Source: a virus | Lineage: Duplodnaviria > Heunggongvirae > Uroviricota > Caudoviricetes | DNA length: 64,000 nt | IMG/VR virus record: IMGVR_UViG_3300045988_163275 | Span: 32,001-96,000 of that record | Strand: one strand, 5' to 3' | Position numbers and translations under genes: made by a program | Notes under the pieces: model-generated | The model's input: only the letters and a program-made list of their open reading frames with translations | Told to the model about the DNA's origin: nothing | Databases searched by the model: none | Shown here: piece after piece, positions 6,942 through 44,610 of the stretch | Numbering within the stretch: position 1 is the stretch's first letter | Layout: the number at the start of each line of letters is the position of its first letter

Positions 6942-6953
6942 GATTAACTCCTT

Positions 6954-7684: not shown

Positions 7685-7698
7685 TTACACCACTAATT

Positions 7699-7712
7699 AA
7701 ACAAATTGTTTA
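7699..7712. promoter_or_regulatory. leader motif A core (partial)
   Basis: AAACAAATTGTTTA next to GGCCACAAATAATGGCC hairpin 7717-7738. Confidence 0.25.
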
Positions 7713-7739
7713 AGGCCACAAATAATGGCCTTATCTGGC

Positions 7740-8438: not shown

Positions 8439-8476
8439 ATTCACTCCATAAATATAAAAGCGCCTGACTATAGCAC

Positions 8477-8692: not shown

Positions 8693-8738
8693 ATTGCGGG
8701 CCTGCTCTGCGTCGATTTCTCTCTCTCCCTGCGCAACT

Positions 8739-9664: not shown

Positions 9665-9705
9665 GTGTTTTTTCTCTTATCATATAGTCACTATATTCTT
9701 ACATA

Positions 9706-9728
9706 GATTAGGTAAGTATTTACCTCTC
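9706..9728. promoter_or_regulatory. palindromic motif B copy
   Basis: GATTAGGTAAGTATTTACCTCTC between genes. Confidence 0.5.
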
Positions 9729-11412
9729 ATTTAACGCGTTTAAAAACGTATACGCTGACAGTAATCCCGGTGTCTTCAAACATGTTAGTAAACGACTTCC
9801 CTTTGGCATAAACGTAATTATCCAGCGTCATCCAGTTTAGAATTGGCGCGTCGCCCGGCAGCACTGCTACCAGACGCCCACCGACTTTCAGATGTCCCAG
9901 CGCGGCCAACGTGTGCTCTCTGTGACGGCCAAGAGAGTAGGGCGGGTTCATGACGATTTTGTCGAACTGATAACCTGCGTTGTCCTCAGACCACTTCATG
10001 AAGTCGCAGCAGACCGTATTTGTGTACCCCTTGCCAAGCAGGATATCAGCGAAGAGAGGTGCGACTTCTATGCAGGTAACGTCTTCCGGATTGGCGTCGA
10101 TGCAGGCCAGCAGATCTCCGCGCCCGGCTTCAGGCTCCAGCAGCTTCTCACCTGGCTTCAGCTCGATGGCTCTGGCAACGTACTCCGCTATCAAACGCGG
10201 GGTAGGGTAGAACTGGTGTGATTTTGTATCCGGTATTAAGCCGGTGGCCACAATCGTATTGAGCGTATGGCCGATCTCATACGGGAACTGCCAGTGCTTG
10301 TTCTCCTGCACGCCGCCAATAAAGCTCAGTGTACGCTCCAGCTCTTCCACCTGTGACTTCTGAAGACCGGAATCAGAGAAGTACCATACGCGTTTGTCAT
10401 TGCCAGATCGCCCGTCGCGAAGCGCAGTACGCACCGGCTCGGAGATCGTCTTCTGGATTAACCCGAACTGTTTTGGTGCCCGTGTTTTGGGCGCAGTACG
10501 ACATGGAGCCGGGATTGCAGCGGGCATACTGTAAGCCAGCACCTCATTCAGCTTCCAGGCTACGTCAGGATGTATTTCAAAGTGAACGTTGCCGTTCTTA
10601 AACATCTTCACACGCATCAGGTTTCCGTCGACATTCATCCAGTCGCCGGTCTGGCAGTCATTTGCTCGATACGCAGCTGACAGCATCTCGGCCGTGCGGT
10701 TGATGGTGATAAATTCTTTGTGTGCAAAGAAATGCAACATGACGCGCAGGTCGTCTATGTAATCCTCTTTCCGGTAGTTAACGCTGACGCTGTCCCGCCA
10801 GAAATCGGAAATGCAGTCGGCGATGATCAGACGCTCGCTGAAGCCGTTCGTCTTATTGGTCTTGTGAGCAGGACTCAACGCCTTAAACAAGCCATACACG
10901 CGCTCAGAGAGATATTTGTGCCTGTCATTCAGCAAATTAAGCATCGTTGGTATGACCGTTTCTGCTTTGAACTCAGGTACACCAACGAACTCTTTAACCT
11001 TCATTTGATAGCCAGTTCTGTCAGTCTTGATCGTTTCCTGCTTGCCCTCGATAAACTGTTCACGCCACTCGTCGCGGCGGGATGCTGGCATGATCAGCAG
11101 AACGTTGGTCATATCCGTGACCTTCTTCCAGTACTCGGCCCAGATATTTTGTTTCACCCATTCCAGGTCGACTTTGTCCAGCCAGGTTCTGTTAAAGCGT
11201 GTGCGCTCGTCGTCCGGCCGGTGGTTAAGTCGCAGTAGACGGTTAATCATGTTGTGGCGTTCGTCGCCATAAACGAAGTCGTGAACCTTATTCATGAACG
11301 CAATCTCTTTCTCGCATTCGGCCACAATTTCGTGGATAACATTCATTTCCTGCCGGTAGTCAATACCGGTGTCTGGAGTGATAGAGTCAATGATGGAAAG
11401 GGCTGTATTCAT
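9727..11412 (-). CDS. putative amino-methyltransferase (likely DNA N6-adenine) with large N-terminal domain of unknown function
   Basis: C-terminal FYPTP ... LEPEAGRGDLL ... VMNPPYS motifs (AdoMet motif I then NPPY); ATG 11410-11412 (track ORF starts TTG 11430). Confidence 0.55.
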   Translation of the reverse strand: MNTALSIIDSITPDTGIDYRQEMNVIHEIVAECEKEIAFMNKVHDFVYGDERHNMINRLLRLNHRPDDERTRFNRTWLDKVDLEWVKQNIWAEYWKKVTDMTNVLLIMPASRRDEWREQFIEGKQETIKTDRTGYQMKVKEFVGVPEFKAETVIPTMLNLLNDRHKYLSERVYGLFKALSPAHKTNKTNGFSERLIIADCISDFWRDSVSVNYRKEDYIDDLRVMLHFFAHKEFITINRTAEMLSAAYRANDCQTGDWMNVDGNLMRVKMFKNGNVHFEIHPDVAWKLNEVLAYSMPAAIPAPCRTAPKTRAPKQFGLIQKTISEPVRTALRDGRSGNDKRVWYFSDSGLQKSQVEELERTLSFIGGVQENKHWQFPYEIGHTLNTIVATGLIPDTKSHQFYPTPRLIAEYVARAIELKPGEKLLEPEAGRGDLLACIDANPEDVTCIEVAPLFADILLGKGYTNTVCCDFMKWSEDNAGYQFDKIVMNPPYSLGRHREHTLAALGHLKVGGRLVAVLPGDAPILNWMTLDNYVYAKGKSFTNMFEDTGITVSVYVFKRVK

Positions 11413-11423
11413 GATTGCACCAT

Positions 11424-11456
11424 TAAACAAATTGTTTTCTTATTGGTGTTATTTTC
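11424..11456 (-). promoter_or_regulatory. leader motif A copy
   Basis: TAAACAAATTGTTTTCTTATTGGTGTTATTTTCTC upstream of 11412. Confidence 0.5.
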
Positions 11457-11513
11457 TCAAAGCTAAAAAGGCGTAAAAGCAGCATTCACAGGCGTTGCAG
11501 CTGATTTAAGACG

Positions 11514-11536
11514 TAAAAAGGGGGCTTTCGTCCCCT
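11514..11536 (-). terminator. rho-independent terminator
   Basis: minus strand GGGGACGAAAGCCCCC followed by TTTTT, 3' of stop of 11553..12125. Confidence 0.6.
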
Positions 11537-11552
11537 GTACGCAGGTGAGAGA

Positions 11553-12125
11553 TTAGTGGTGTACGTGCTGCGTTTTGTACGGCTGTTTGTTCAGGTTGTG
11601 GCGGTGCATAAGCTCGCGCATCATGTCTTCAAGACGGCTCTTGGTGTCGTCAAGCTGGTCGGCCATTGCCCCCAGCAGCTGGCGAAGGGCCATCGGATCG
11701 TCGCTGTTCAGCTCAGGCATTTTGAACCCAGCCTGGGAAGACATCAGTTTGAAAGCGGCCAGCAACATCGCCAGAGAAGACTTCAGCCCGGCGATTTCAT
11801 GATCTTTGCTGGCGTTGGTTTCATCTGCCTTGACTGAATCCAGTGAGCACTTCGGCTTGCTTACCATTTCCAGAGTTGCCTGAAGTTTGTCGGCGCGTTC
11901 TTTCTCTTCCAGATACGCTTCGCCGAAATGACGCGCCAGCATCACAATTTCAATCGGATCATCAATCATGCTTGAGAACTTGAGAACGCTGAAAAGGCGG
12001 TCAATAGGGGAGGCGTCGTCTTCGTGACCAACCACAAGACCCATGATCTCAACCAGTTCGGCCGCACCAACTTTTTTAATCACGCTTTCAACTTTGGCAT
12101 TAGTTTTTTTGCATTTTTCACACAT
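11553..12125 (-). CDS. hypothetical protein (190 aa)
   Basis: ATG 12123-12125 with AAGGAAG SD. Confidence 0.5.
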   Translation of the reverse strand: MCEKCKKTNAKVESVIKKVGAAELVEIMGLVVGHEDDASPIDRLFSVLKFSSMIDDPIEIVMLARHFGEAYLEEKERADKLQATLEMVSKPKCSLDSVKADETNASKDHEIAGLKSSLAMLLAAFKLMSSQAGFKMPELNSDDPMALRQLLGAMADQLDDTKSRLEDMMRELMHRHNLNKQPYKTQHVHH

Positions 12126-12144
12126 GTGTTCTTCCTTATGCTTT

Positions 12145-12178
12145 TAAACAAGTTGTTTTCTTAATTGTTTAATTGTCT
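12145..12178 (-). promoter_or_regulatory. leader motif A copy
   Basis: TTTTAAACAAGTTGTTTTCTTAATTGTTTAATTG upstream of 12125. Confidence 0.45.
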
Positions 12179-12333
12179 CAAATTCTATGATGATGTGAAG
12201 AGTTGCATTAAGGCGAAAAGACACGCAAAAGGAAAAATCAGGCATACCAGACATTTATTTAAAGTGGCATTCATAGCAGAATGTTCTCATTGCCGAAGTT
12301 CTATTCAGACGTCAGTCCCTAAGAGAGAGCAAA

Positions 12334-13293
12334 ATGTTTGGTAATCTTTTCAAAACGGAAGAAACTAAGGCCCGGGAGGGCTTGGAGTCTCATTATCAGA
12401 AAGTCATGAGCTTCGTTGCTGAAAATGATCTACATGAAGCATGGGAAAAAACACGCAATATCATTTTTCGAAATATGGAAGTTAGAAGCTACATCACGCA
12501 AAACGGCGCGTTCGATCGTAACGATTTTTACTATAAGTCAGCCAAAGAGAAGCTTATTCAAAGCGCCTTCACTTCATACCTACTCATAAAAGTTTTACCT
12601 CAGTTCTATGAAATGCATCTCACCACTTTGAAAAGAAAAGAAAAAACACTCACAACACAGGATGAATACGGGGTCTGGAACTTTGACAAGTGGTTTGATG
12701 AAGTAGACTACTTTTATGACAAGGTAGTAAAAGAGAAAGTTTACGATTGGATCGAAGAGAACACAGGCCGGCTCAACAACCTTTGGTTGGCAGAGTCGGA
12801 GGACAAGAATGCCTGGGGGCGGCCAGTTTACTTTAAATTCCAGTTGCCTGAACAATTTGATCGCTGCGCAATAAATCACATTATGACGGTGGTAGACAAT
12901 ACACCAGAACCTGAATTACCTGAGTACACTTCGCTACTGACCGGGCACGAATATGAGCATTTTGTCGCTGGGGAGTTTATGAAGTATGGATCCGACACCC
13001 AAGTAACTAAGGGCAGCGGCGATCACGGTCTGGATATCCTTGTAACCTATAGAGAAGTTCGAATGGCTGTTCAGTGCAAACACTACCAGTCTAAAGTAGG
13101 CAACAAAGCTATTCAGGAAGCATTTTCCGCGAAACAGTTCTACGATTGCTCCCTCGCAATAGTAGTCAGCAACAGCGAGTTTACCCCTCACGCCAGACAA
13201 GCAGCCAAAAAACTGGACGTTTATCTGTATCACCATGAAGATATACACTTAATAATAGACGCCATTAATAATTGGCTGGATGCGCCGGAGTGA
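12334..13293 (+). CDS. Mrr-like (PD-(D/E)xK) restriction endonuclease-domain protein, N-terminal domain unknown
   Basis: C-terminal GSGDHGLDILV ... VQCKHYQSKVGNKAIQEAF ... IVVSNSEFTPHARQAAKKLDVYL resembles Mrr catalytic domain; plus-strand, AT-rich, amid minus-strand genes. Confidence 0.6.
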   Translation: MFGNLFKTEETKAREGLESHYQKVMSFVAENDLHEAWEKTRNIIFRNMEVRSYITQNGAFDRNDFYYKSAKEKLIQSAFTSYLLIKVLPQFYEMHLTTLKRKEKTLTTQDEYGVWNFDKWFDEVDYFYDKVVKEKVYDWIEENTGRLNNLWLAESEDKNAWGRPVYFKFQLPEQFDRCAINHIMTVVDNTPEPELPEYTSLLTGHEYEHFVAGEFMKYGSDTQVTKGSGDHGLDILVTYREVRMAVQCKHYQSKVGNKAIQEAFSAKQFYDCSLAIVVSNSEFTPHARQAAKKLDVYLYHHEDIHLIIDAINNWLDAPE

Positions 13294-13328
13294 AGATTGA
13301 GGGGCTAATGCCCCCCCCTATTCGTCGG

Positions 13329-13517
13329 TTAAAAGAACCCGAGGATGCCGCCCACTGGAACAATGAAAACTCCCACGACACGCGCAAGTGTCACTCCGGC
13401 ATGAGACTGGAGATCGCCATCGTTCACAAGTTTCACCAGATTCATGATCCAGCCGCTAAACAAAAAAACGGTAAAGCCAACAATCATCAAGGTGAATTTC
13501 TGGAAGTTCCATTTCAT
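13329..13517 (-). CDS. hypothetical small membrane protein (62 aa)
   Basis: two hydrophobic segments (FTLMIVGFTVFLF, VVGVFIVPVGGILGFF). Confidence 0.3.
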   Translation of the reverse strand: MKWNFQKFTLMIVGFTVFLFSGWIMNLVKLVNDGDLQSHAGVTLARVVGVFIVPVGGILGFF

Positions 13518-13526
13518 ACAATAGCC

Positions 13527-14120
13527 TCAGTCACAGCAGAAGGAAGATCCGGAGTCGCAGGTCGAGCTGGAATCGTGTCCATCAGCATCCCATCCAGAGA
13601 GACAGGAGGTCGTTCGGGCAGGGGGGTCATCTGCAAGGCCGTGGTGGCAGTGGAAGTAGTTGTGCCCGGCATCAAAAGGCTCTGACCGGCTGGTACGGTA
13701 ACCGCTGCCAGAGTTGCCAAAATCACTCCGTAGGCCATTGGCTTCAGTCGATTTCGTTGAAAATTTTCCATGAGAACTGTCCTTGTGTGTCCGGGTTTCA
13801 CGCAAAACACGAGAAGCAACGCTATTACGCACCTTCTCCATGCCTACTGTCGTGCCCAGATTAGCTATGGCGGTAGCTTGCGCATTAATGCGCTTCTCCA
13901 GTTCAAACACTCGTTCTTCCAGTTCCGCAAGGCGTGCGGAAACACGACCACTAAACAGCTCGGTCAGCACCAGGCGAATTGAACGGGGACGTTTATTGAA
14001 AGAAGTGAAAGACGTTTGACGGGCCATGTGGATTCCATTCAGTGTCAGAAAGAGTTGCGGCTGGCCAAGCCGCCTTTTGGCGTTCCATCCTGGAACCGTA
14101 CCTAACCGGTACTTCGTCAT
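13527..14120 (-). CDS. hypothetical coiled-coil protein; 3' part overlaps an alternative frame
   Basis: ATG 14118-14120; N-terminal half has LAELEERVFELEKRINAQ heptads; C-terminal third is low-complexity and overlapped by frame 13514..13819 (signal-peptide-like protein). Confidence 0.35.
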   Translation of the reverse strand: MTKYRLGTVPGWNAKRRLGQPQLFLTLNGIHMARQTSFTSFNKRPRSIRLVLTELFSGRVSARLAELEERVFELEKRINAQATAIANLGTTVGMEKVRNSVASRVLRETRTHKDSSHGKFSTKSTEANGLRSDFGNSGSGYRTSRSEPFDAGHNYFHCHHGLADDPPARTTSCLSGWDADGHDSSSTCDSGSSFCCD

Positions 14121-31996: not shown

Positions 31997-32013
31997 TATT
32001 TTTGCTGTTAATA

Positions 32014-32289
32014 TCACTCAAAAGTGCTGATACCCAAAATGCGCTCAAGATGGGCCGCGTCTTCATCGCTTACCAGCATTGTGTCGTCGACGTACCAGCA
32101 GCTACCGTTGTGCCAACAAACACCGTCATCATCGATATAAATAGAATCCGTATCCATTCCTGTGTATTCAACTAGATTGCGTTCAATTGCCGCTTGAATT
32201 TCTTCATCGTTCAGCCCGTCGCACTTGATCATGAACAACGGGTAAACGTCATAGTCGCTACTAGATGAAATGCGAACCAAAGTCTTCAT
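32014..32289 (-). CDS. hypothetical acidic protein (91 aa)
   Basis: ATG 32287-32289 with AAGGAG SD; track ORF extends over motif B. Confidence 0.45.
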   Translation of the reverse strand: MKTLVRISSSSDYDVYPLFMIKCDGLNDEEIQAAIERNLVEYTGMDTDSIYIDDDGVCWHNGSCWYVDDTMLVSDEDAAHLERILGISTFE

Positions 32290-32305
32290 GTGTTTTCTCC
32301 TTGTT

Positions 32306-32325
32306 GGTAAGTACTTATCTATCTT
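32306..32325. promoter_or_regulatory. palindromic motif B copy
   Basis: GGTAAGTACTTATCTATC 17 nt upstream of ATG 32289; marks left edge of island. Confidence 0.55.
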
Positions 32326-32777
32326 AATGGGCGCTATAAGGCGCACAATCATTGTGTTCAGGCTGGTGGAAAGAACTTCTCCAGCGTGTGGTTGATAGCC
32401 TTATCAATGTGCATCAGGTGGCCAAATTCAGTGTGCCACTTCACTCGAACCCCAAGACCGGCAATGGAATCGCTTTGTAGAGCTAGAGTTAGTGCCGCAT
32501 CCTCGTATTGAGCACAGCGAAGCGATTGAGCTAGACTATGGCATGACGGGGGGCGCTCTAAAGGTTGAGATTAGAGCGGCCTCGGCAGGCTACTTACTCA
32601 GACAATGGAATGTGGATTGTTCTACCAACGCCACACTCCAAGATGGTGGAGCTCAATTGTACTTAAAGAACAGAGCAACACTTTATGGAGTTAAAAACAT
32701 CATGCTAGCTCCAGGGATTGAAAAAGAACTTGGTAACTAATGCACAAAAACGAACTTGGCGCAGAGAATAAATTTTG

Positions 32778-35700
32778 ATGAAAATAATCGATAACCTTAA
32801 CAACCTATTAGGTGACGAGCTTCAACAGACGCTGACACCGAATACAAAGTTAAAGATTGCTGCGTCTTGCTTTTCTATTTATGCGTATGAGGCTCTCAAA
32901 AAGGAGTTAGCGAAGATAGACTCACTTGAGTTCATCTTCACATCACCTACTTTTGTCGCAGATGAAGTTACCGATAAATTCAAAAAAGAAAAACGAGAGT
33001 TCTTTATTCCCAAAGCAGGGCGTGAACGCAGCCTTTACGGAACTGACTTTGAAATACAGTTAAAGAACAAGCTCACTCAAAAGGCGATCGCCAAAGAGTG
33101 TGCAAACTGGATCAGAAAGAAAGCGACATTCAAATCAAACAAAACTGATTCTCCAATGCAGTCGTTTGTTGTGACGGAAGCACCTAGACAGCAAACAGAG
33201 ACAATGAGTGCAGTTTTTGCTCCGGTTAGCGGGTTTACGGCGGTTGATCTAGGGTATCAGCGAGGAAATGCTATTTCGAATTTTGTGCAAAAAATCGATG
33301 AGCCAAATTTCACAGCCCAGTACTTACAGTTATTCGACCAAATTTGGAAAGACCCTGCGAAGCTTCAAGATGTTACTAAAACAATTTGCGAGCATATAGA
33401 GTCTGTCTACCAGGAAAACTCGCCTGAGAAAGTCTATTTCATTATTTTGTATAACATTTTTAATGAGTTCCTTGATGATATTACAGAGGATGTATTACCA
33501 AATGATCGAACCGGCTATCAGGACACCTTGATTTGGAACAAGTTATTCAACTACCAAAAAGATGCCGCGACTGGGATTATCAATAAGTTAGAGACCTATA
33601 ACGGCTGCATTCTGGCTGATAGTGTTGGTCTTGGTAAAACATTTACAGCGTTAGCTGTCATCAAGTATTACGAGCTCAGGAACAAGTCCGTACTTCTACT
33701 GTGTCCGAAAAAATTGGCAGATAACTGGCTCAACTTTAATCGAAACTTAAAGACAAATATTTTTGCTAAAGACCGTTTTAGTTACGATGTTTTGTGTCAC
33801 ACAGATTTGAGTCGAACCTCTGGCGAATCCTTCGGTACTCCGTTGAATAGAATAAACTGGGGTAACTATGACTTGGTCGTCATTGATGAGTCGCATAACT
33901 TTAGAAATAACGATGCAGTGAAAGATCGAGAAACTCGATATCAGAAACTGATGAATAAAGTGATTCGCGCTGGCGTAAAAACCAAGGTGCTGATGCTATC
34001 AGCGACACCAGTGAATAACAGATTTACTGACCTGAGAAACCAGCTCGCGTTAGCTTATGAAGGCGAGTCGAGCAATCTCACAAAGCATCTTAAAACCACA
34101 AAAAGCGTAGAACAGATCTTCAACCAAGCACAAGCCGCATTTAACGCTTGGTCCAAACTCGACCCAGAGACGCGAACAGCTAAAGCCATACTCGATGCCT
34201 TAGATTTTGACTTTTTTGAACTGCTTGATAGCGTCACTATCGCTCGCTCACGAAAGCACATCACAACTTTCTACGACACAACAGATATTGGCCATTTCCC
34301 TGAACGTAACAAGCCAATCTCGTTTCATTGTCCGCTTACTACTCGTTCGGATGTAGTAAGCCTGAATGAGATCTTTGAACAGCTTAAGCTACTCAAACTA
34401 TCTGTTTATGCGCCAGTGAGTTATATCCTCCCGAGTAGATTGAAGAAATATGAGGAGATGTATGACACGGAAGTTGAAGGCGGAAAAGGTAAGTTAAAGC
34501 AAAGCGACCGTGAAAAAAGTTTGGTTGCATTGATGACAACGAACCTCCTAAAGCGTCTTGAGAGCTCCGTATACTCGTTCAGAAGCACCTTGCAATCTCT
34601 CCATGATAACCATGTTCGTGTTCTAGGTATTATCGACGAATTCTATAAGCGAGACGGGCAAACCGAAGTGAGCAGTCTCGTTGAAGCGCTAGAGTCTATT
34701 GAAGCAGATGAAGACGATATGCCTTCTTATCACGATATGGAAATCGGTAACAAAATCAAAATTAAGCTAATGGATATGGATCTTCCATCCTGGCAGCAGG
34801 ATTTAGATGGCGATTTGGAGCTGATCAAAGGGTTACTAGATTCTGTTAGCAAAATTAAGCCAGAAGAAGATGCTAAGTTGCAGCATCTGAAATCACATAT
34901 TGCTGCAAAAATAAATAATCCGATAAATCCTGGAAACCGGAAAATCATCGTGTTCACGGCGTTTGCTGACACCGCTCAGTATCTGTACGAGCAGTTGTCA
35001 CCTGTGATGTTAAGCGAGCATAGAATCCATACTGCGATGATCACTGGTGGTGCCAGTTTACCTAAGACCACCTTAAAAACCGGACGAAAAGGTTACGACA
35101 CACAAGAAGTGCTCACCTTGTTTTCTCCAGTTTCCAAATCGAAAGCCAGTGTATTACCTGACGAACCCGCTGAAATCGATTTGTTGATTGCTACAGACTG
35201 TATCTCTGAAGGGCAGAACTTACAGGATTGCGATTACTTAATTAACTTTGATATTCATTGGAATCCAGTTCGGATTGTTCAGCGCTTTGGGCGTGTTGAC
35301 CGTATTGGCTCGGCGAATAAATGTATTCAGTTAGTTAACTACTGGCCTGATATATCGCTGGATGAGTACATCAACTTAAAAGAACGTGTTGAAAGTCGAA
35401 TGACGATTGTTGACGTAACAGCGACCGGTGATGACAACGTTCTAAGTTGTCAAGCGAATGATGTGTCGTACCGTAAAGAGCAGTTAAAGAAACTACAAGA
35501 AGAAGTCATCGAGCTTGAAGATTTAAAAACGGGGGTTTCTATCACCGATCTAGGTCTAAACGAATTTCGAATGGACCTGCTAAATCTAATGAAACTCTAC
35601 GGCGAACCAAGAAATGCACCAAGCGGCATGCATGCGGTGGTTGAGGCTAAGCCAGAATTAGGGTTATTGCCTGGCGTGGTGTTTGCGCTGAAAAACGTTA

Positions 35701-36110
35701 ATAACAGTATCGATAGAGATCTGCAAAACAGGCTCCACCCTTATTACCTTGTCTATGTATCGAATGAAGGGGACATCGTCGCTAATCATTTTGAGGTAAA
35801 GAGACTATTAGATTTAATCCGAAGTAGCTGTAAAGGTCAAACAGCACCGCTCAGTGAGATTTGTGCTTTATTTAATCGCTTAACGCAAGACGGTCGAGAT
35901 ATGCAGTGTTACTCTCACCTTCTAACAGATGCCATAAAAAGCATGGTTGAAGTTAAGGAAGAAAAAGATATTGATAGTTTGTTCAATGGTGGCGCTACCT
36001 CAGCTTTAGTGAATACATTTGCCGGGCTTGATGACTTTGAATTGCTGGCATTTATTGTGATCCAGCAAAAGCAGCTGATGGAAAACAGTGCCCAGGATGA
36101 GGTTAGCTAA
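32778..36110 (+). CDS. SNF2-family helicase with ~250-aa N-terminal domain of unknown function
   Basis: motif I ADSVGLGKTFTA, motif II LVVIDESHNFRN, motif III LMLSATPVNN, C-terminal helicase motifs ATDCISEGQNLQDCDYLINFDIHWNPVRIVQRFGRVDRIGS; 1110 aa; AT-rich. Confidence 0.85.
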   Translation: MKIIDNLNNLLGDELQQTLTPNTKLKIAASCFSIYAYEALKKELAKIDSLEFIFTSPTFVADEVTDKFKKEKREFFIPKAGRERSLYGTDFEIQLKNKLTQKAIAKECANWIRKKATFKSNKTDSPMQSFVVTEAPRQQTETMSAVFAPVSGFTAVDLGYQRGNAISNFVQKIDEPNFTAQYLQLFDQIWKDPAKLQDVTKTICEHIESVYQENSPEKVYFIILYNIFNEFLDDITEDVLPNDRTGYQDTLIWNKLFNYQKDAATGIINKLETYNGCILADSVGLGKTFTALAVIKYYELRNKSVLLLCPKKLADNWLNFNRNLKTNIFAKDRFSYDVLCHTDLSRTSGESFGTPLNRINWGNYDLVVIDESHNFRNNDAVKDRETRYQKLMNKVIRAGVKTKVLMLSATPVNNRFTDLRNQLALAYEGESSNLTKHLKTTKSVEQIFNQAQAAFNAWSKLDPETRTAKAILDALDFDFFELLDSVTIARSRKHITTFYDTTDIGHFPERNKPISFHCPLTTRSDVVSLNEIFEQLKLLKLSVYAPVSYILPSRLKKYEEMYDTEVEGGKGKLKQSDREKSLVALMTTNLLKRLESSVYSFRSTLQSLHDNHVRVLGIIDEFYKRDGQTEVSSLVEALESIEADEDDMPSYHDMEIGNKIKIKLMDMDLPSWQQDLDGDLELIKGLLDSVSKIKPEEDAKLQHLKSHIAAKINNPINPGNRKIIVFTAFADTAQYLYEQLSPVMLSEHRIHTAMITGGASLPKTTLKTGRKGYDTQEVLTLFSPVSKSKASVLPDEPAEIDLLIATDCISEGQNLQDCDYLINFDIHWNPVRIVQRFGRVDRIGSANKCIQLVNYWPDISLDEYINLKERVESRMTIVDVTATGDDNVLSCQANDVSYRKEQLKKLQEEVIELEDLKTGVSITDLGLNEFRMDLLNLMKLYGEPRNAPSGMHAVVEAKPELGLLPGVVFALKNVNNSIDRDLQNRLHPYYLVYVSNEGDIVANHFEVKRLLDLIRSSCKGQTAPLSEICALFNRLTQDGRDMQCYSHLLTDAIKSMVEVKEEKDIDSLFNGGATSALVNTFAGLDDFELLAFIVIQQKQLMENSAQDEVS

Positions 36111-36113
36111 TCT

Positions 36114-36800
36114 ATGTACTCACCTTGGATATTTCCTGACAAAGCAAAGTTCGGTCGAGTCGTGCCGAAGAACAAAATATACGAACACAGCGCGGCAAGC
36201 GCTGGATTGAAGTCACTTTTTGTAGAGCAAGTAGAGCAAATCCTTTGGGCTTACAAGCTATCGCCTAGCACGCTGAATATTCCTCAAACCAGTGAGGTCA
36301 GTGAAATACAGGTTTTCAGTGTGAAGCTTAAAGGTGACTCGATAGACGACAGCGTACTAAAAGCCATTGATTTGGCGATACCTTTTCCCATTCTATTTGA
36401 GGTATGGGAAGCTCGCGGTGAGCAAGGCCACTACGTTGCTTGCTATAAGCGTAAGGCAGAAAATGATCAGTCAAAATGGTTTTGTAGCCGCTATTTACGC
36501 TCAGAAACCTTCTATTCAAGTGATTCATTAGCAGTGACTTCAGAAGTTTTGGGGTTGCCTACCGCCATCGATATGGCGGAGCTGTATCAAAAGCTTCTTA
36601 CTCGCTTGTTACCCATACCCCAACGAGCCGCTGAGAGTATTGAAGAGGTCATTGAACGCTTGATGGCAATTCAGGCATTGGAAAAGCAAATCTCGCAATA
36701 TAAGAAGAAGGTTCATGCCGAGAAACAGTTTAACCGCAAGGTTGAGCTCAATAAGCAGTTAAAGAATTTAAGGTGCGAGCTTCAAGAGTTACTCGCATAA
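36114..36800 (+). CDS. 228-aa protein of unknown function, coiled-coil C-terminus, coupled to the helicase
   Basis: ATG 3 nt after helicase stop; C-terminal heptad-rich segment; no catalytic motif seen. Confidence 0.7.
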   Translation: MYSPWIFPDKAKFGRVVPKNKIYEHSAASAGLKSLFVEQVEQILWAYKLSPSTLNIPQTSEVSEIQVFSVKLKGDSIDDSVLKAIDLAIPFPILFEVWEARGEQGHYVACYKRKAENDQSKWFCSRYLRSETFYSSDSLAVTSEVLGLPTAIDMAELYQKLLTRLLPIPQRAAESIEEVIERLMAIQALEKQISQYKKKVHAEKQFNRKVELNKQLKNLRCELQELLA

Positions 36801-36873
36801 AGAATAAACAATTTCAATCAGTTAAATAGTGCCACATGCTTTTTATGCAAGGCATCACGCAAAAGGTGAACAC

Positions 36874-38796
36874 ATGGACAAATTAAAGATGCACAGCCCC
36901 GACATGACGCAGCAAAACATAGAGAAAATTCAGGCGTTGTTTCCGAACTGCGTGACGGAATCAAGAGGAGCTAACGGAGAGCTAAAGTTAGTCATTGATT
37001 TTGACCAACTTAAACAAGAGCTATCAAATTCAATCGTTGAAGGCCCGCAAGAGCGCTATCAGCTGAACTGGCCCGGTAAGCGAGAAGCACTACTAACAGC
37101 GAACGCACCTATTGCAAAAACATTAAGACCTTGTCGAGAAGAAAGTGTTAATTTTGATACCACAGAAAACCTCTTTATTGAAGGTGATAACCTTGATGCG
37201 CTAAAAATGTTGCAAGAAACCTATTTGGGCAAGGTTAAGGTGATTTATATAGATCCGCCCTATAATACGGGTAAGGATTTTATATACGAAGACGATTTTG
37301 CTGAAAATTCTGATGGGTTTTTGAAGCGGTCAAATCAAAAGGATGAAGAAGGCAATCGCCTTGTAGCCAATACCGATTCCAACGGTCGCTTTCACTCAGA
37401 CTGGTTGAGCATGATATTTTCGAGACTTAAACTTGCACGCAATATACTAAGTAGTGATGGAATTATCTTTATTAGTATAGATGAAAACGAGCTTGATAAC
37501 CTCTTGAAAATAGGAAAGGAAATATTTGGTGAAGAGAACCACATAACTACGTTTTGTTGGGAAAAAAAGAAGAAACCATCTTTTCTTAATAAAAATGTAG
37601 GTTCGAAATTCGAGTATATTGTCACCTTTTCAAAGAATCGTGATTACACAGGTGCATTTTCCATTGATCTTACAACTGAAGGTAAAAAGTACCCCCTGAA
37701 TAATGCAGGGAACTCACTCGGAAACCTTGTTTTTCCAGCAGGTTCGGTACGATTCAACTTGCCAGACCAGATTATAGAACCGCAAGATATGTCTGAGGGT
37801 AAAATAAAAACCAGGTTAATTAATAGGTTGGAAATAATTGGAGGTAAAAACGTTAATGAATTTATCCTTGAGGGTGAATGGAGATATTCTCAGAATAGAT
37901 TAAATGAAATTCTAGAAAATCGAGAAGAAATTATAATCAGCAAAGTTCCGTTTAGGCCAAATCATGTAAAAGCAGGAGGTGAGATAAAAAAAATGCACAA
38001 CCTCCTAAGTGTCGCTCATTATAAAGTTTCAACTAATGAGGATGCGGATGCCGAAAGTTCAGAGTTGATGGGGAATAAATACTTTGATTACACCAAGCCT
38101 TCAAATTTAATCAAACTATTAATCCAAGCAATAACTTATGACGATCAAGAATGTCTAGTATTAGATTTTTTTGCGGGTTCATCAACAACCGCCCATGCCG
38201 TGATGCAACTTAATGCAGAAGATGGCGGAAATCGAAAATTTATCATGGTTCAGTTGCCTGAAGAGTGTGATAAAAAATCAGAAGCCTTCAAAGCTGGCTA
38301 CAAAACAATTGCTGAGATATCAAAAGAACGCATCCGCCGTGCTGGTGCAAAAATATTAGAAGGGGAGTGCCACAAAGACTGGAATAAAGACGTTGGTTTC
38401 CGAGTGCTTAAAGTTGATACATCCAATATGGCCGATGTCTACTACTCGCCAGAGCAGGTTTCTCAGGGTTCGTTAGACTTATTGGTAGATAATATTAAAT
38501 CAGACCGCACTGATGAAGATTTACTTTTCCAGGTTCTACTTGATTGGGGCGTCGATTTAACCTTGCCAATTAGAAAAGAAACGATTCAAGGTAAATCGGT
38601 ATTCTTTGTCGATGATGATGCACTGGTGGCCTGTTTTGATCTGCGCATAAATGAAGCTTTGATTAAAGAGTTAGCCATAAAAGAACCTCTTCGCGTAGTG
38701 TTCCGTGATGACGGCTTTGAATCTGATGCAGTAAAAATCAATGCTGAGCAGATTTTCAAGCAAGTGTCGCCATATACTGAAGTTAAAGCGATTTAA
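36874..38796 (+). CDS. mod: Type III restriction-modification Mod subunit (beta-class N6-adenine methyltransferase)
   Basis: [13 protein letters not shown] ... [23 protein letters not shown] (motif IV) precedes [16 protein letters not shown] (motif I); ~640 aa; ATG with AAGGTG SD (track ORF starts GTG 36829). Confidence 0.85.
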
Positions 38797-38891
38797 GGGG
38801 GGAGCATGACAAATTTTACCGGATTAAAATTTGCACACAGCCTTGTCGCAGACAAGGTGTGCCCAAAGGGTTGCGTACAGGGAGGTGCGCA

Positions 38892-41800
38892 ATGAAACTT
38901 AAATTCAAAGTCCAGCCTTATCAAACTGTTGCCGTAGAGTCGGTTGTTGACTGCTTTGCGGGGCAACCTAATACCTCCGGTATAACCTACCGAATCGATC
39001 CTGGCATTGCCAAAGATAAATTTGGCAATGCTGGCTGGGATATGAGTGACCAGGATGGGTTTAAAAATGCTGAACTTGCGATCACTGAATCGCAGTTATT
39101 GCAAAATATCCATGGTGTTCAAAGTAGACAGAACCTCCCTGTTTCAGAAGCGTTAGCCAGCAATGCTAGCTCTAAGATTAATCTCGATGTTGAAATGGAA
39201 ACCGGTACAGGTAAGACATATTGCTACATCAAAACTATCTTTGAGATGAATAAACGCTATGGCTGGAGCAAATTTATTATCGTAGTGCCTAGCATTGCCA
39301 TTCGTGAAGGTGTTTACAAGTCGCTACAAATCACAGGTGAGCATTTTGCCCAGAATTACAACGGTAAAAAGGCACGGTTTTTCATCTATAACTCAAAACA
39401 ATTGCACCAGTTAGAGAGTTTTTCTTCTGACAGTGGCATCAATGTCATGATCATTAATATTCAAGCCTTTAATGCATCAGGAAAAGACAATCGACGTATT
39501 TATGAAGAGTTGGATGACTTCCAGTCTAGGCGTCCTATTGATGTTATTAGTGCAAACCGTCCAATCCTGATTTTGGATGAGCCGCAGAAGATGGAAGGTA
39601 AGAAGACATTAGATGCCTTAGCCAAATTCAAACCACTGATGGTACTTCGATATTCGGCCACGCATAAGACAACACATAATAAGGTGCATCGTCTGGATGC
39701 TCTTGACGCTTATAACAATAAGCTGGTTAAGAAAATTGCAGTTCGTGGTATCTCAGTAAAGGGTTTAGCGGGCACTACAGCCTATCTATATCTGGAATCC
39801 ATCGAAATCTCAAAAAAAATGCCAGTGGCTCGTATAGAGATCGAGGTTAAACAACAAAATGGCATCAAACGCATACCCAAGAAGGTCACTAAGGGCGATA
39901 ATCTTTTTGATCTTAGTAATGGTTTGGACCAGTACCGTGATTTTGTGGTTACTGATGTCAACGCGATTAACGACACAGTTGAATTCAAAAATGGCCATGT
40001 TTTAACCGCGGGCGATGCCACGGGAGACGTGACCGAAGAGACCATTCGCCGCATACAGATTCGCGAGACAATTAAAGCACACCTTGAAAAAGAAAAAATA
40101 CTTTTTAACCAGGGTATAAAGGTTCTCTCTCTCTTTTTTATTGACGAAGTCGCAAAGTATAGGGACTACTCTCAAGCCGATGAAAAAGGTGATTATGCTC
40201 GCGTTTTTGAAGAAGAGTATTCCTTGCTTGTACAGGAGTATCTTGATGAGTTGTCCCTTTTGCCAAGTGAGCAGACTGATGCCTATAAAGCCTATCTATC
40301 GGCCATTGAAGGCTCTAGAACGCATAATGGTTACTTCTCAATTGATAAGAAATCAAATCGTCTTCAGAACCCCGGCTTTAAAGTCCGTGGTGAAGATGCC
40401 GGGCTATCAGACGATGTAGATGCCTATGATTTGATTTTAAAAGATAAGGAAAAGTTACTTTCGTTTGAAGAGCCTACTCGATTTATCTTTTCACACTCGG
40501 CCTTGCGCGAGGGGTGGGATAATCCAAACGTATTTGTCATGTGTATGTTGAAACACAGCGACAATACTATCTCTCGTCGTCAAGAAGTTGGACGTGGTTT
40601 ACGTCTGGCCGTCAATAAACATGGTGACAGACAAGATCATCCGGCAACTGTGCATGAAATTAATGTCTTGTCGGTGATTGCAAGTGAAAGCTATAAAGAC
40701 TTTGTCACGAATCTGCAAAAAGAGATCAGCGAGTCTCTCTCAGCGAGACCTAGAAAAGCAGATGAAGCTTATTTTACGGGTAAGACAATTACAACAGCTG
40801 ATGGACCTGTAGAAGTAACACCTGTCATGGCTAAGCAAATTTATAAGTATTTGCTTAAAAATGATTATACCAATGACGTTGACGATTCAATTGCGCCATC
40901 ATTCCACCAGGCTAAGGCTAGTGGGCAGTTAGCGCCAATGCCTGCTGAGTTAGAGCCTTACCGCGAGCAAATATTGACCCTGATTGACGGTGTTTATAGT
41001 GAAGCGCAATTGCCAGGTGTTGGTGATGATCGTAAACCTAAAAACAATCCGTTGAATGCTAATTTTGATAAGAAAGAGTTTCAGGAGCTTTGGCACAAAA
41101 TCAATCGCAAAGCGGTTTATAAGGTTGATTTTGATTCGTCTGAGTTGATTAAAAATTGTATTCGGGTACTCAATAAAGAGCTTAAGGTAACGCCTCTTCA
41201 GTACACGATTCAAGATGGTGTTCAATTGGATGGCATTACCGACGAACAACTCAAAGCTGGACAAAGTTTCAAGGTGAAAAACACTGAGACTGAAACTCAT
41301 CAATCGAGCATTCATTCTGCTGTTCGTTATGACTTGGTTGGTAAGTTGGCTGAAAATTGTGTGCTGACTCGCAAAACAGTCGCCGAAATACTGATGGGTA
41401 TAGAACCTGTAGTATTTGCACAATTTAAGCAGAACCCTGAGCATTTTCTCGCTGAGGCTTCACGCCTTGTGAAAGAGCAAAAGGCATCTGTGATCATCGA
41501 GAAGCTATCATATGATCCAACGAACGAATCTTATGATGTTGATATATTCACGGCAGAGCAAAAAATCACTGATATGACAAAAGCCGTTAGTGGCGTTAAT
41601 AAGCATATTTATGATTATGTTGTCGTTGATTCACAAGGCATTGAACGGGACTTTGTTACCGAGCTTGATACAAGCAAAGAAGTCGTGGTTTATGCAAAAC
41701 TGCCTCGTGGTTTTCTGATACCGACGCCTGTTGGCGACTACAACCCTGATTGGGCGATTTCTTTCAAAGAAGGAAGTGTTAAACACATTTACTTTATTGC

Positions 41801-41969
41801 AGAGACTAAAGGAACGATGTCTTCGCTTGAATTGCGTGGCATAGAAGATCGCAAGATTGAATGTGCTAGGAAATTCTTTGAAAAAATTAATGCAGAGATA
41901 ACGAGTGAAAACGTCAAATATGATGTTGTAACGAGTTACTCGAAATTAATGGAAGTCATAAGCGGTTAG
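38892..41969 (+). CDS. res: Type III restriction enzyme Res subunit (helicase + PD-(D/E)xK nuclease)
   Basis: [23 protein letters not shown]-terminus, Walker [20 protein letters not shown]; C-terminal YNPDWAISF ... [10 protein letters not shown] nuclease motif; strong GGGAGGTG SD. Confidence 0.85.
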
Positions 41970-41990
41970 TTGTTTTCGTTTTTATATCGG

Positions 41991-42024
41991 GCTGTCAGTT
42001 CATCTGGCTGACAGCTCACTTTTA
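41991..42024 (+). terminator. rho-independent terminator ending the island operon
   Basis: GCTGTCAG-TTCATCTG-GCTGACAGC then TCACTTTT. Confidence 0.55.
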
Positions 42025-42211
42025 GTTACATAAAAATAATTGAAAAATTGAGTCAGCAGATTGAGTCTAAATGTCGCTCACTCATGCGGTTATATTTTAA
42101 GTATGGTTGTTGACATGACGGAGAAATAGCATGAATCCTGAAAAGTGAATCGCCACTGCCATCAGATAGAGTTTGATCATGTGTTTTCCTATGTGGCTAT
42201 TGTGTGTAGAT

Positions 42212-42270: not shown

Positions 42271-44610
42271 TTAATCTTCTAATTCATCTGTCGGTGATGT
42301 CTTCTCGCGCCTGTCATCTATTGCCTGTAACGCAGCAATGATTTCAGCTAATGGCTTCTCCCGGTACATCTCGACGATCTGTGATTTGGTGTATTTCTTC
42401 TCGCCAATTTCCACACGCCCGCTGGCGCTCTTGGGCAGGTATCCTTCCTCCAGCATGTATTCAACCAGAGACTCGACGACGTCCAGCCCGCGAGTCGGGT
42501 CGAAGTAGAATTTCCATGAGCATTTGCCAAACGGAGGCGCGACTTTGTTTTTAATGCACTCGGCGCCAACGTCCTGTCCGATCTTCTCTTTGCCATCCTT
42601 CATGACGGATGCACCCAGACGGATGCGCACCGACGCGTAGAACTTCGGAGAGTCGCCACCCGGAGACGTAGTCGGATCGCCAAACATCACACCAATTTTG
42701 GTACGCACCTGGTTCAAGAAGATGATGCACGCGTTGTACTTACGCGCCCAAAGCGCCAGAGTAGGGAAGTTCGCACTTGTCGCGCGCGCCAGCGCCGTGT
42801 TGTCGTTCATGTTCAGCTGATCTTTGTCCTTCGCAGTGCCTTCTGCCATCTTGTCGAACTTCTCAGCCTTCGAGTTCGGAACCATCGACGCCAGAGAGTC
42901 GGCTACGATGCAGATAGGGGCTGTTTCCGGAATAAGCTCTTCGTCGCGCACCAGCTTGAGGATTGTGCCGATCAGCTCTACGGAGTCTTCGAAGGTATCC
43001 GGCTGTTTGTAGACCCACTGACCGTCGTCTTCGTCGGCGTTCAGTCCGTTCGCTACCGCCAGACCAACGTCGAAACTGTTTTCGTGGTCAAGGAATACGG
43101 CCAGACCATCCTGTTTTTGTGCTGACACCATCGCAGCTGTCGCGAGGAATGTGTTGTGGCTGATAATCCCGTTAGACCAGAAAGAGTGTGTTTCCGGCAT
43201 CGCTACGTCGAACGTTGGTGCTTCACCTTCCTCAATAGCCACGACTTCGTCGTAGAACAAGTTAGAGTCAATTACCGCTGCCAGTTGTGCAAACAGATGC
43301 TCGTTAAAACGATTCTTTCTGCTAATGAAGGAGACATAGATTTCTCGCAGTTTGTCTATTCCGACACGATCGCCGCGGCCAATAACGTGATCTACCAGAA
43401 CGTAGTCTTTACGAGAGGTCTTGGTGAGTGACTCGTAGAGTGATTTCACTAAGCCGCTGATGTGCGGAACGTAGCCTAAATAAGTGCGGTCAAAACTAAT
43501 GTCCCGTTTGGTTGCCACTGCTAAACGAGCCGGAGACTCGAACCCAATCGTTGACAGGAAAAGGTCGTAGTTAGAGCCACTGAATGACAGCCGGTAATAT
43601 ATGTTTTTATAACCTGCGACGTGTTTTTCAGAGATAGTTGACGTAATCCCCAGATTCAGGAGCATGAGGCGAATTTGCTGTAGCAGCAGCCCACTCGCGC
43701 TCACAACCTCAATGCAGCGACCATCATTGATGTGGCATTCCAGCTCAAAGTAGCCGCGAAGGAATGCAATTTGAGCCTCGCTATTGGCGCGACGCACACT
43801 CAACGGAACCTGCTTGCCAGCAGCTTTCTCATACTCCAGACCATATTCTTTAAAAAGCAGCGAACGCACCTCTTTGCTAAACAGCACATGGTCTTCCGAG
43901 CCGTTATGTTTTCTCGTAACTGGCATCTTGTCTGATACCAGCGAAATGAGGCGGTAGTACTCATCCTTGATGAATGGATCTGTGTTAGAAAAATGCACAG
44001 AATTTTCAGAGGCCACGTATCCGTCAGCAATTAAATAGCCCATCAGTTTTGCGATATTGGCATCCAAGTGCTGATCGCCGAATTGATGTGTGCCAACCAT
44101 TGAAGGAATCGTGTCGCCTACACTGATTTTTTCAGCATACCGCCAGACGATATTGCCTAAGTCGTCAACCACACGAATTGGGTGACGGAACGTAGCCTCG
44201 ATGTAACCCCCTGATGCCAGCTTAATGCGCTTGAATTTGCGACGGTTGTTCCATGTCAGGTGTGAGGTCTTCTCTATCACGCCATTTTCATTGATGAGTC
44301 CAACGTTATGCTCTACATCGCGAGTAGTGCATGTTGCTTTGTGCCCCTCAATCTCAAACAGTTCTTTCACTGTTACCATTCCACGCTCCGTCAGCAGCAT
44401 GGTGTCTGCGGTAACACATTTCCCCGCGCTTGGTGGCCCGAAGACTTCAACGATACGCCCACACGGAAAACCACCGTCGTAACGTCCGGAAATGGCTTTG
44501 TTCAGTGGAGGGAAACCGGAGTCAATCCAGTGGGAGACCTTCTGAATCTCGTCATTGCTGCCGATTTTCTTTTTCAGCGCCAGTGCCAGTGCGGATTTGC
44601 CTTTTGCCAT
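42271..44610 (-). CDS. recA: RecA recombinase interrupted by a 422-aa intein
   Basis: exteins total ~357 aa with GPPSAGK P-loop and IFLNQVRTKIGVMFGDPTTSPGGDSPKFYASVRIRLG core; ATG with AAGGAG SD. Confidence 0.9.
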   Translation of the reverse strand: MAKGKSALALALKKKIGSNDEIQKVSHWIDSGFPPLNKAISGRYDGGFPCGRIVEVFGPPSAGKCVTADTMLLTERGMVTVKELFEIEGHKATCTTRDVEHNVGLINENGVIEKTSHLTWNNRRKFKRIKLASGGYIEATFRHPIRVVDDLGNIVWRYAEKISVGDTIPSMVGTHQFGDQHLDANIAKLMGYLIADGYVASENSVHFSNTDPFIKDEYYRLISLVSDKMPVTRKHNGSEDHVLFSKEVRSLLFKEYGLEYEKAAGKQVPLSVRRANSEAQIAFLRGYFELECHINDGRCIEVVSASGLLLQQIRLMLLNLGITSTISEKHVAGYKNIYYRLSFSGSNYDLFLSTIGFESPARLAVATKRDISFDRTYLGYVPHISGLVKSLYESLTKTSRKDYVLVDHVIGRGDRVGIDKLREIYVSFISRKNRFNEHLFAQLAAVIDSNLFYDEVVAIEEGEAPTFDVAMPETHSFWSNGIISHNTFLATAAMVSAQKQDGLAVFLDHENSFDVGLAVANGLNADEDDGQWVYKQPDTFEDSVELIGTILKLVRDEELIPETAPICIVADSLASMVPNSKAEKFDKMAEGTAKDKDQLNMNDNTALARATSANFPTLALWARKYNACIIFLNQVRTKIGVMFGDPTTSPGGDSPKFYASVRIRLGASVMKDGKEKIGQDVGAECIKNKVAPPFGKCSWKFYFDPTRGLDVVESLVEYMLEEGYLPKSASGRVEIGEKKYTKSQIVEMYREKPLAEIIAALQAIDDRREKTSPTDELED
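43153..44418 (-). mobile_element. intein with LAGLIDADG homing-endonuclease domain inserted in the RecA P-loop
   Basis: starts CVTADTMLL after GPPSAGK, TFRHP block, LMGYLIADGYV and FLRGYFELECH dodecapeptides, ends IISHN followed by T; boundary codons checked by hand. Confidence 0.8.

Follow-up and report, generated by a model that had tools for sequence, protein, structure and literature searches.

The locus

The DNA considered here is a 64,000-nucleotide stretch (the window) of the Caudoviricetes record IMGVR_UViG_3300045988_163275 in IMG/VR. On its plus strand, a block of about 9.7 kb encodes a Type III restriction-modification (R-M) pair, the methyltransferase Mod and the restriction subunit Res, together with a helicase of the SNF2 family and a small protein of the DUF4391 family that precede the pair. 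The four co-directional open reading frames (ORFs) lie where an earlier note on this DNA had placed them and have the same starts in the RefSeq annotation of a near-identical sister plasmid. As that note also held, the window contains no other multi-gene plus-strand block of long ORFs. The four genes are listed below, with motif positions given as residues and lengths in amino acids (aa).

32778-36110, plus strand: SNF2-family helicase, 1110 aa; GLGKT 284-288, DESH 370-373, SATP 408-411, QRFGR 835-839; Pfam SNF2-rel_dom and Helicase_C
36114-36800, plus strand: DUF4391 protein, 228 aa; Pfam PF14335 (7e-55); alpha/beta domain at about 1-165, C-terminal antiparallel helical hairpin at 176-227
36874-38796, plus strand: Type III Mod methyltransferase, 640 aa; motif IV DPPY 127-130, motif I FAGSS 433-437; PADLOC MTase_III (1e-225)
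38892-41969, plus strand: Type III Res, 1025 aa, intact; Walker A GTGKT 105-109, motif II DEPQ 229-232, nuclease residues PD 952-953 and ETK 971-973

Alignments with relatives resolve the limits of this island to the base, at 32421 and 42151; the AT-rich block had been recognized before, with its edges set at 32306 and 42024. The GC content of the island is 0.412 versus 0.490 for the rest of the window, and among 348 backbone segments of 9.7 kb taken outside the island the minimum is 0.469 (mean 0.493), so that the AT-richness previously judged by eye proves on computation to be a large contrast. GC at third codon positions is 0.35-0.47 in the island genes versus about 0.5-0.65 in backbone genes. 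Translational coupling, earlier proposed for the whole operon, applies to SNF2 and DUF4391, which are separated by 3 nucleotides (nt), and not to the steps from DUF4391 to Mod (73 nt) and from Mod to Res (95 nt).

A conserved four-gene order

Comparison of relatives shows the helicase and its small partner to be a fixed part of a conserved four-gene architecture and not optional neighbours of a Type III pair, a point that the earlier note had overlooked. A scan of one genome per species, starting from DUF4391, found a relative in 258 species, and the best 80 loci were examined. Among these, the order SNF2-DUF4391-Mod-Res on one strand is kept wherever the contig allows. SNF2 is present in 78 of the 80 loci, the contigs of the other two starting at the DUF4391 gene; Mod is likewise present in 78, the other two contigs ending just past the DUF4391 gene; and Res is found in all 66 informative loci, the remaining 14 ending in or just past mod. 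The same order occurs in 16 IMG/VR viral contigs, in a Variovorax megaplasmid and metagenome contigs, and in each of three Res homologues chosen regardless of DUF4391 (from Syntrophus, Porticoccus and Zobellella). It extends to a Firmicute element, Erysipelothrix phi1605, at 24% DUF4391 identity. Classical Type III systems are two-gene units, whereas here SNF2 and DUF4391 precede mod-res in every informative relative and a BrxR or HTH_17 gene often heads the operon.

Within this order, SNF2 and DUF4391 behave as one unit, with overlapping codons and an uninterrupted junction. The SNF2 stop and the DUF4391 start overlap by 4 nt in 54 of 76 loci. Other genes are nested at the DUF4391/Mod junction in 22 of the loci examined and at the Mod/Res junction in 21, and in none at the SNF2/DUF4391 junction. 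Moreover, no SNF2-DUF4391 pair without Mod-Res was seen in the more than 100 loci examined. In Zobellella, SNF2 is split and DUF4391 truncated, and Mod and Res are intact.

Identity among relatives is about 70% for SNF2, about 67% for Res and about 44% for DUF4391. Between the window and a copy in Vibrio cholerae, the ratio of nonsynonymous to synonymous substitution (dN/dS) is 0.037 for SNF2, 0.215 for DUF4391, 0.27 for Mod and 0.047 for Res. Purifying selection acts on all four genes.

Among 5,426 complete E. coli genomes, 87 contain a DUF4391 system, in three lineages. That of E. coli CFT073 (L116, NC_004431.1 5116943-5127508) is a full operon of regulator, helicase, DUF4391, Mod and Res. 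The copy in this uropathogen lies in a leuX tRNA-Leu island beside a decayed integrase and is shared by about 50 similar genomes. A third E. coli lineage (25 genomes) has the system in a CP4-like island. In NCTC11121 (L117), an IS3 element lies between the helicase and DUF4391, the rest being intact.

The genes nested in the operon are co-directional and of defence type: SIR2 with HerA, an OLD-like ATPase with TOPRIM and DUF2130, an AAA ATPase with a subtilase, AAA_13, UvrD-like helicases, a recurrent Schlafen/AlbA_2 protein of about 552 aa, PLD, Fic, and AAA_21 with DUF4276. They lie between DUF4391 and mod in L023, L033, L046, L054, L055, L057, L062, L064 and L087, and between mod and res in L032, L035, L037, L046 and L079 and also in L094-L096. 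The Erysipelothrix phi1605 copy (L097, MF172979.1 75033-83913, deposited as a phage) has the macrolide-resistance genes mef(A) and msr(D) beside it, and the label given to its DUF4391 homologue, 'methyl-accepting chemotaxis protein', looks like a mis-annotation.

The Type III core

The mod and res genes are adjacent on the plus strand with mod first, the arrangement of a Type III pair. Homologues of Mod include EcoP15I Mod (5e-57) and the Mod of structure 6k0w (1e-58). Its motif order is that of a beta-class amino-methyltransferase, with motif IV N-terminal to motif I and a variable recognition region between them. Res matches PADLOC REase_III (E=0), Pfam ResIII and RE_endonuc, and EcoP15I Res (8e-75). 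The pair resembles EcoP15I and EcoP1I in its co-oriented genes, in a beta-class Mod with DPPY ahead of FxGxG, and in a superfamily 2 (SF2) ATPase Res with a C-terminal PD-ExK nuclease. The earlier note had made its reading depend on the catalytic motifs of Mod and Res holding up on proper alignment, and all of them are present. The cassette is a mobile defence operon of the Type III R-M family.

Motif IV is DPPY in N6-methyladenine (m6A) Mods generally. Because N4-methylcytosine (m4C) Mods carry DPPY/F at this position (Murray et al. 2021, PMC8259958), the DPPY of the present Mod does not discriminate between the two kinds. Two parts of the core set the window's copy apart:

37533-38131, plus strand: Mod target-recognition region; GC 0.352; no blastn homology to the copies L001, L004, L006 and L008; absent from PLSDB
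38806-38895, plus strand: lineage-specific mod-res spacer; ATGA at 38806-38809 is the ancestral res start position, followed by 86 extra nt at 38810-38895

The recognition region is unrelated to that of other copies, whose homology to the window breaks at several different points, and Mod specificity is therefore being swapped. The gap between mod and res is 9-11 nt in relatives. The 86-nt insert is predicted to fold into three hairpins (RNA fold z-score -3.0). Within it, an ORF of 29 codons ends in a stop that overlaps the ATG of res (ATGA); looked for in PLSDB, the insert is absent from all plasmids there.

The nearest RefSeq relative is the sister plasmid NZ_CP100974.1 (E. coli ET300). It matches the cassette and, in the parts compared, differs in nothing other than the loss of 5 bp, CAACT, at window positions 41247-41251. 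This loss frameshifts res and leaves a natural restriction-minus, modification-plus state. RefSeq flags the sister plasmid's res as 'frameshifted'; the cause is this genuine 5-bp deletion, which the window, with its intact res, does not share.

The SNF2-family helicase

The first gene of the operon is, as claimed before, an SNF2 helicase gene; it is intact, with its ATPase motifs present. The protein is a true member of the SNF2 family whose nearest solved relatives are RapA and SMARCA5. Its best PADLOC match is the candidate model 'HKD+Snf2' (7.6e-122), reached via the insert in the helicase core and the C-terminal domain; the N-terminal 255 aa scanned alone give no match to that model. No nuclease motif was found in the helicase (HKD, HxK(x)4D or PD-ExK). 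The helicase thus carries a different, unassigned N-terminal domain where its relatives carry a nuclease. This region of about 250 aa is conserved across 66 orthologues, has no family match in Pfam even at E <= 10, and gives chance-level matches to sequences in the Protein Data Bank (PDB). The helicase also falls below every NCBIfam cut-off (DrmD, for example, at 152 bits versus 610).

Two further possibilities were considered for the helicase and rejected. The N-terminal domain is not a degenerate HKD/PLD nuclease: besides the missing Pfam and 'HKD+Snf2' matches, no candidate-motif histidine is found in the 66 orthologues, and PDB profile matches are at chance level. The SNF2 protein of L007 does not serve as an HKD-type comparator, as it has no N-terminal extension and is a different helicase.

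The DUF4391 protein

The product of the second gene belongs to a large family (2,687 clusters at 50% identity) for which the literature search for DUF4391 or PF14335 found no paper and two incidental mentions, one apparently a typo for DUF7941. It has no match in PADLOC or NCBIfam. An AlphaFold2 model built on a 125-sequence alignment reaches pLDDT 95.3 and pTM 0.89 and has no significant relative among solved structures. An invariant motif, EKQFNRK (203-209), lies at the tip of the modelled hairpin. Residues that are polar and nearly invariant in the family are K19, E64, D86, K112, R182, Q205 and N207. A weak nuclease resemblance in an earlier, low-confidence model was not corroborated. The sole SNF2::DUF4391 fusion was set aside as a functional clue, for it looks like a deletion product.

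Insertion site and junctions

The island is flanked by the backbone of an SSU5-like phage-plasmid, 86-92% identical to Salmonella phage SSU5. These flanks are common to hundreds of plasmids, which are IncFIB-typed and non-mobilizable. The cassette has repA to one side and an intein-containing recA to the other, in an interval where SSU5 has four small minus-strand genes, SSU5_064 to SSU5_061. The features at and near its edges are as follows.

32366-32420, minus strand: 3ʹ remnant of an SSU5_064 homologue, its last 19 codons and stop (HLMHIDKAINHTLEKFFPPA, then the stop), matching the C-terminus; blastn homology to SSU5 stops at 32420
32421-32443: IS3-family terminal remnant, 23 nt, GCCAAATTCAGTGTGCCACTTCA; in the alignment, common only to the chromosomal copy L006 (E. 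coli GPEC996)
32444-32740, plus strand: truncated brxR (WYL-domain regulator), the last 98 of 311 codons; the 5ʹ 640 nt and the promoter are gone
41989-42017, plus strand: terminator-like hairpin 3ʹ of res, with a 12-bp stem, a 5-nt loop and a weak T-run
42152-42156, no strand: right junction, 5-nt microhomology GCCAC; homology to L006 ends at 42156 and homology to the backbone relative L002 starts at 42152
42155-42180, minus strand: 5ʹ remnant of an SSU5_061 homologue (small membrane protein), its first approximately 9 codons (MIKLYLMAV); blastn homology to SSU5 resumes at 42155

Since only the tail of SSU5_064 and the start of SSU5_061 survive, about 1.9 kb of backbone was replaced by the cassette. 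The alignments thus point to a replacement of backbone genes, from the middle of SSU5_064 to the start of SSU5_061, instead of entry into an empty site. At the left junction, the backbone meets the IS3-end scar at a 7-nt microhomology, TCAGGTG. The stretch 32421-32443 is read as the scar of an insertion sequence (IS) end because an IS3-family transposase fragment still adjoins the same stretch in the GPEC996 chromosome, where it is annotated directly upstream of the cassette.

Several proposals about the edges fare differently in this light. A startless minus-strand frame at 32366-32570 had been taken for a possible gene remnant; its last 19 codons are indeed the SSU5_064 C-terminus, and the rest crosses the IS scar and the plus-strand brxR remnant and is open by chance. 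The remnant that does mark the left edge besides the SSU5_064 tail is the brxR fragment beside the IS3-end scar, which had been missed. RefSeq labels this fragment 'WYL domain-containing protein, missing N-terminus', and its sequence nearly equals the C-terminus of the full-length BrxR (domains WHD_BrxR, WYL and BrxR_CTD) of the V. cholerae copy, where the full 311-codon brxR stands directly upstream of the helicase. A Chi octamer does lie at 32362, as proposed, but it is no mark of the left edge, since it lies in the backbone and is 1 of 20 in the window, none of them in the island. These 20 sites (12 plus, 8 minus) compare with about 2 expected for a random octamer. The earlier note had put the island between a conserved operator palindrome and recA. 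The recA neighbour is confirmed, and the palindrome at the left edge is not convincing, only weak ones being found there (32215-32242). The island does end in a terminator of its own, the hairpin at 41989-42017, with a weak T-run after it.

The head of the operon varies among relatives. A 69-aa gene overlapping the SNF2 start encodes an HTH_17 protein in Syntrophus (L094 3874-4083) and Porticoccus (L095 134-343), and Variovorax (L010 6533-6742) has an ORF of equal size and position without a Pfam match. In the clade carried by ICEs (integrative and conjugative elements), the BrxR regulator takes the place of the 69-aa gene.

The neighbouring recA (42271-44610, minus strand) is an ORF of 779 aa, for which relatives have the annotation 'intein-containing recombinase RecA' or 'LAGLIDADG family homing endonuclease'. 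As the SSU5 RecA gene is only 1,077 nt long, recA of this lineage carries an intein.

Aligning the flanks against related elements, as had been proposed, shows the locus either empty or occupied by other cargo in close relatives. Plasmid S56-B has a Type I R-M and DUF4268 cassette at the same locus with other junctions; in p.CT29-P1 the locus is empty and the four small genes to its left are also missing; further relatives carry IS1. In L002 (NZ_CP010244.1), positions 5710-13691 hold a Type I R-M system (hsdR, DUF4268, hsdS, hsdM) in the same SSU5-like backbone interval, with different junctions. The interval is a recurrent cargo-exchange region, and the Type I cargo of L002 suggests a defence-cargo hotspot of this phage-plasmid group.

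Origin and spread

Copies in V. cholerae, Shewanella, Salinivibrio and Marinomonas share 92-96% DNA identity with the cassette, the homology beginning inside brxR. Together with the SSU5-like flanks, the other or absent cargo in relatives and the intact Mod/Res motifs, this identity to other genera supports the earlier reading of a horizontally acquired defence cassette on a phage-plasmid; the cassette is foreign cargo. That reading had been made to depend on no related element carrying the four genes here with backbone-like composition; relatives that have those genes at this locus hold the same foreign AT-rich DNA.

The V. cholerae copy, 94-96% identical to that of the window, has a cassette GC of 0.418 within its ICE, in agreement with the island of the window. 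Its gene order is rumAB, an exonuclease gene, brxR, SNF2, DUF4391, mod, res and an Mrr-like gene, then traI and traD. Hotspot 5 of SXT/R391 elements is the interval between s026 and traI (PMC2791158), and because the V. cholerae copy follows rumAB and lies directly upstream of traI, it sits in that hotspot; the window's copy does not. According to a review, all SXT elements have their anti-phage locus in hotspot 5 (PMC12409358). In Marinomonas ICEMprChn1, hotspot 5 holds a 'DNA or RNA helicase', a 687-bp 'hypothetical protein', a methyltransferase, a Type III R subunit and a restriction endonuclease (PMC5122569). 'RM type III' also appears, with no further comment, among the defence cargo recorded in a survey of SSU5-group phage-plasmids (bioRxiv 10.1101/2025.09.12.675607). 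In none of these ICE and SSU5-group papers are the helicase and the small protein counted among the system's components. Compared with the SXT/R391 cargo, the window's cassette is in another type of mobile element, has lost its regulator and has a new Mod specificity region.

The brxR-truncated version is also found in other E. coli SSU5-like plasmids, in one E. coli chromosome (GPEC996) and in large IncHI1B/FIB plasmids, where it is IS-flanked and accompanied by a piece of the phage-plasmid recA. The cassette is rare: 10 of the 5,426 complete E. coli genomes have it at full length, and it is found in 15 PLSDB plasmids. The ancestral form comprises five genes: brxR, SNF2, DUF4391, Mod and Res. 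An IS3-family element cut brxR of this form, and the truncated cassette then took the place of about 1.9 kb of an SSU5-like phage-plasmid via the two microhomology junctions.

Comparison with known systems

Restriction systems on phage-plasmids are ordinary; P1 carries EcoP1I. The present element is like P1 in having a Type III system aboard a phage-plasmid.

The closest parallel for the extra genes is the work of Murray et al. (2021), who described m4C Type III systems, Eco86II and BspHIV, with an additional conserved SF2 helicase-like ATPase 5ʹ of mod (PMC8259958). That ATPase has no nuclease motif, is not homologous to Res and occurs next to Type III pairs in over 500 genomes. It was absent from partially purified active Eco86II and was dispensable for methylation and in vitro cleavage (PMC8259958). 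The present helicase fits this description, as a conserved SF2 ATPase without a nuclease motif 5ʹ of mod. Furthermore, the hosts of predicted m4C systems in their Table 4, which does not state the third protein, overlap with those of the cassette's relatives (Vibrio fluvialis, Proteus mirabilis, Vogesella, E. coli). Their helicase is described as 'immediately 5' of mod' with no DUF4391-like ORF mentioned and no accession provided, whereas here DUF4391 intervenes. It is plausible that the two helicases belong to the same family. A link to Eco86II through E. coli NCTC86 was considered and dropped: NCTC86 is not among the matches listed to this helicase, about 14 of the 87 lie outside that listing, and the collection may not hold the strain.

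The cassette also recalls DISARM, BREX-related and Hma systems, in which a SNF2 helicase accompanies an adenine or cytosine methyltransferase for self/non-self discrimination, and its helicase is partially similar to DrmD, BrxHII and HmaA. It differs from DISARM in having no DrmA, DrmB (DUF1998) or DrmC and in the low score, given above, against DrmD, the SNF2 helicase of class 1 DISARM. It differs from BREX-related and Hma systems in having no DUF499, DUF1156, PglZ or BrxC, in a helicase without a fused HKD or PD-ExK domain, and in Mod and Res proteins that are bona fide Type III. Membership in DISARM, BREX, Hma or Zorya was rejected, because the helicase matches each of them only in part, under the cut-off, and the partner genes are missing.

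Possible roles of SNF2 and DUF4391

We consider it probable that the whole locus is a mobile Type III operon in which an EcoP15I-like core is joined by a SNF2-DUF4391 accessory motor dependent on Mod-Res. By homology to EcoP15I, a Mod dimer would recognize a short asymmetric site and methylate one strand of host DNA. On unmethylated incoming DNA, a Mod2Res complex would be set in motion by ATP and would cut with its PD-ExK nuclease on meeting a second complex. Cleavage by Type III enzymes depends on ATP and falls about 25-27 bp from one of two unmethylated sites in inverse orientation. SNF2 and DUF4391, made together, may form one complex, a nuclease-free, ATP-driven translocase or remodeller of double-stranded DNA. 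Acting on the same DNA as Mod2Res, it would make restriction stronger or broader, whether by active translocation, by serving as a collision partner or by stripping protective proteins off the DNA, and the helical finger of DUF4391 may serve to dock it, either to a partner or to DNA. The pair would depend on Mod-Res and not the reverse, since Zobellella keeps Mod and Res while the pair decays and no locus with the pair alone was seen.

Several observations weigh against this account. The tie between SNF2-DUF4391 and Mod-Res is drawn from conserved gene order only. The invariant polar residues K19, E64, D86 and K112 mean that DUF4391 could be an enzyme instead of an adaptor. If the ATPase of Murray et al. 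is the present helicase, the latter is not a stoichiometric subunit of the nuclease. Finally, no plus-strand sigma-70-like promoter was found in 32000-32778, brxR and its promoter having been lost in the window, and the res frameshift in the nearest sister plasmid shows that the cassette can decay.

The accessory-motor account has a bolder form, in which the locus would represent a distinct four-component restriction class and a SNF2 motor, docked via the new-fold DUF4391 finger, would alter how Mod2Res finds or cuts DNA; this is possible, if doubtful. Invaders that escape classical Type III enzymes, such as those with single or one-orientation sites or with protein-coated DNA, would then still be destroyed.

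The conserved association could also arise from two independent systems that travel together, with Mod-Res self-sufficient and SNF2-DUF4391 acting apart from it in defence or as a back-up, for example by sensing that restriction is inhibited or by attacking other invaders, the two being inherited together within a defence island. Classical Type III enzymes such as EcoP15I need only Mod and Res (PMC4005696), Murray et al. did not detect the extra ATPase when they examined active preparations of Eco86II (PMC8259958), unrelated defence genes of other kinds are readily accommodated in the operon, and Zobellella retains Mod and Res beside a decayed pair. We nevertheless regard this as rather unlikely, given that order and orientation are invariant from Proteobacteria to Firmicutes, whereas ordinary island neighbours shuffle, that the pair never occurs without Mod-Res in the more than 100 loci, and that it has no recognizable effector domain of its own. 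A different role for the pair would be self-protection or control of establishment. In that case, SNF2-DUF4391 would remove or restrain Mod2Res on unmethylated resident DNA and let the cassette enter a naive, unmethylated host without killing it, much as in the restriction alleviation of Type I systems. SNF2 enzymes are known protein-DNA remodellers, the window's lineage resides on mobile elements (an ICE, phage-plasmids, IS-flanked islands and a tRNA-linked island), and the BrxR or HTH_17 gene that usually heads the operon suggests that its expression must be controlled. This role is improbable all the same: Zobellella tolerates a decayed pair next to an intact Mod and Res, IS3 splits the helicase from DUF4391 in NCTC11121 while the other genes there are intact, and SNF2 shows very strong conservation (dN/dS 0.04, about 70% identity across classes), which fits a core enzymatic role better.

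Whatever the pair does elsewhere, the cassette in this plasmid might be a silent or decaying passenger, no longer expressed or functional since the loss of its regulator and promoter and persisting by hitch-hiking. The missing 5ʹ 640 nt of brxR, the failure to find a plus-strand promoter-like site upstream of SNF2, the 5-bp frameshift in res of the sister plasmid and the rarity of the cassette (those 10 of 5,426 genomes) are all consistent with this. Yet the four ORFs are intact with all motifs present, and most differences between copies with the same brxR truncation are synonymous (dN/dS 0.035-0.05 for SNF2 and Res). Moreover, the Mod specificity region was swapped after the truncation, which suggests ongoing selection for new specificity. 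We consider a silent cassette very unlikely.

Significance

The route by which the cassette was acquired is ordinary and is now well resolved; what is notable is the conserved four-gene variant of a Type III system. Type III enzymes are viewed as two-protein machines, and annotation tools call this cassette 'RM type III', ignoring the other half of the operon. The relatives described here nonetheless form a large and deeply conserved branch of Type III systems that always includes a SNF2 motor and a small protein lacking a solved structural relative. The cassette moves among conjugative elements, phage-plasmids and chromosomal islands, swapping specificity as it goes, and is thus a useful marker of the trade in defence cargo among enteric bacteria. 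The CFT073 and ICE copies are ready experimental material. If the SNF2-DUF4391 pair alters the range of restriction, the view of Type III defence and of phage escape from it would change, and the large DUF4391 family would gain a function.

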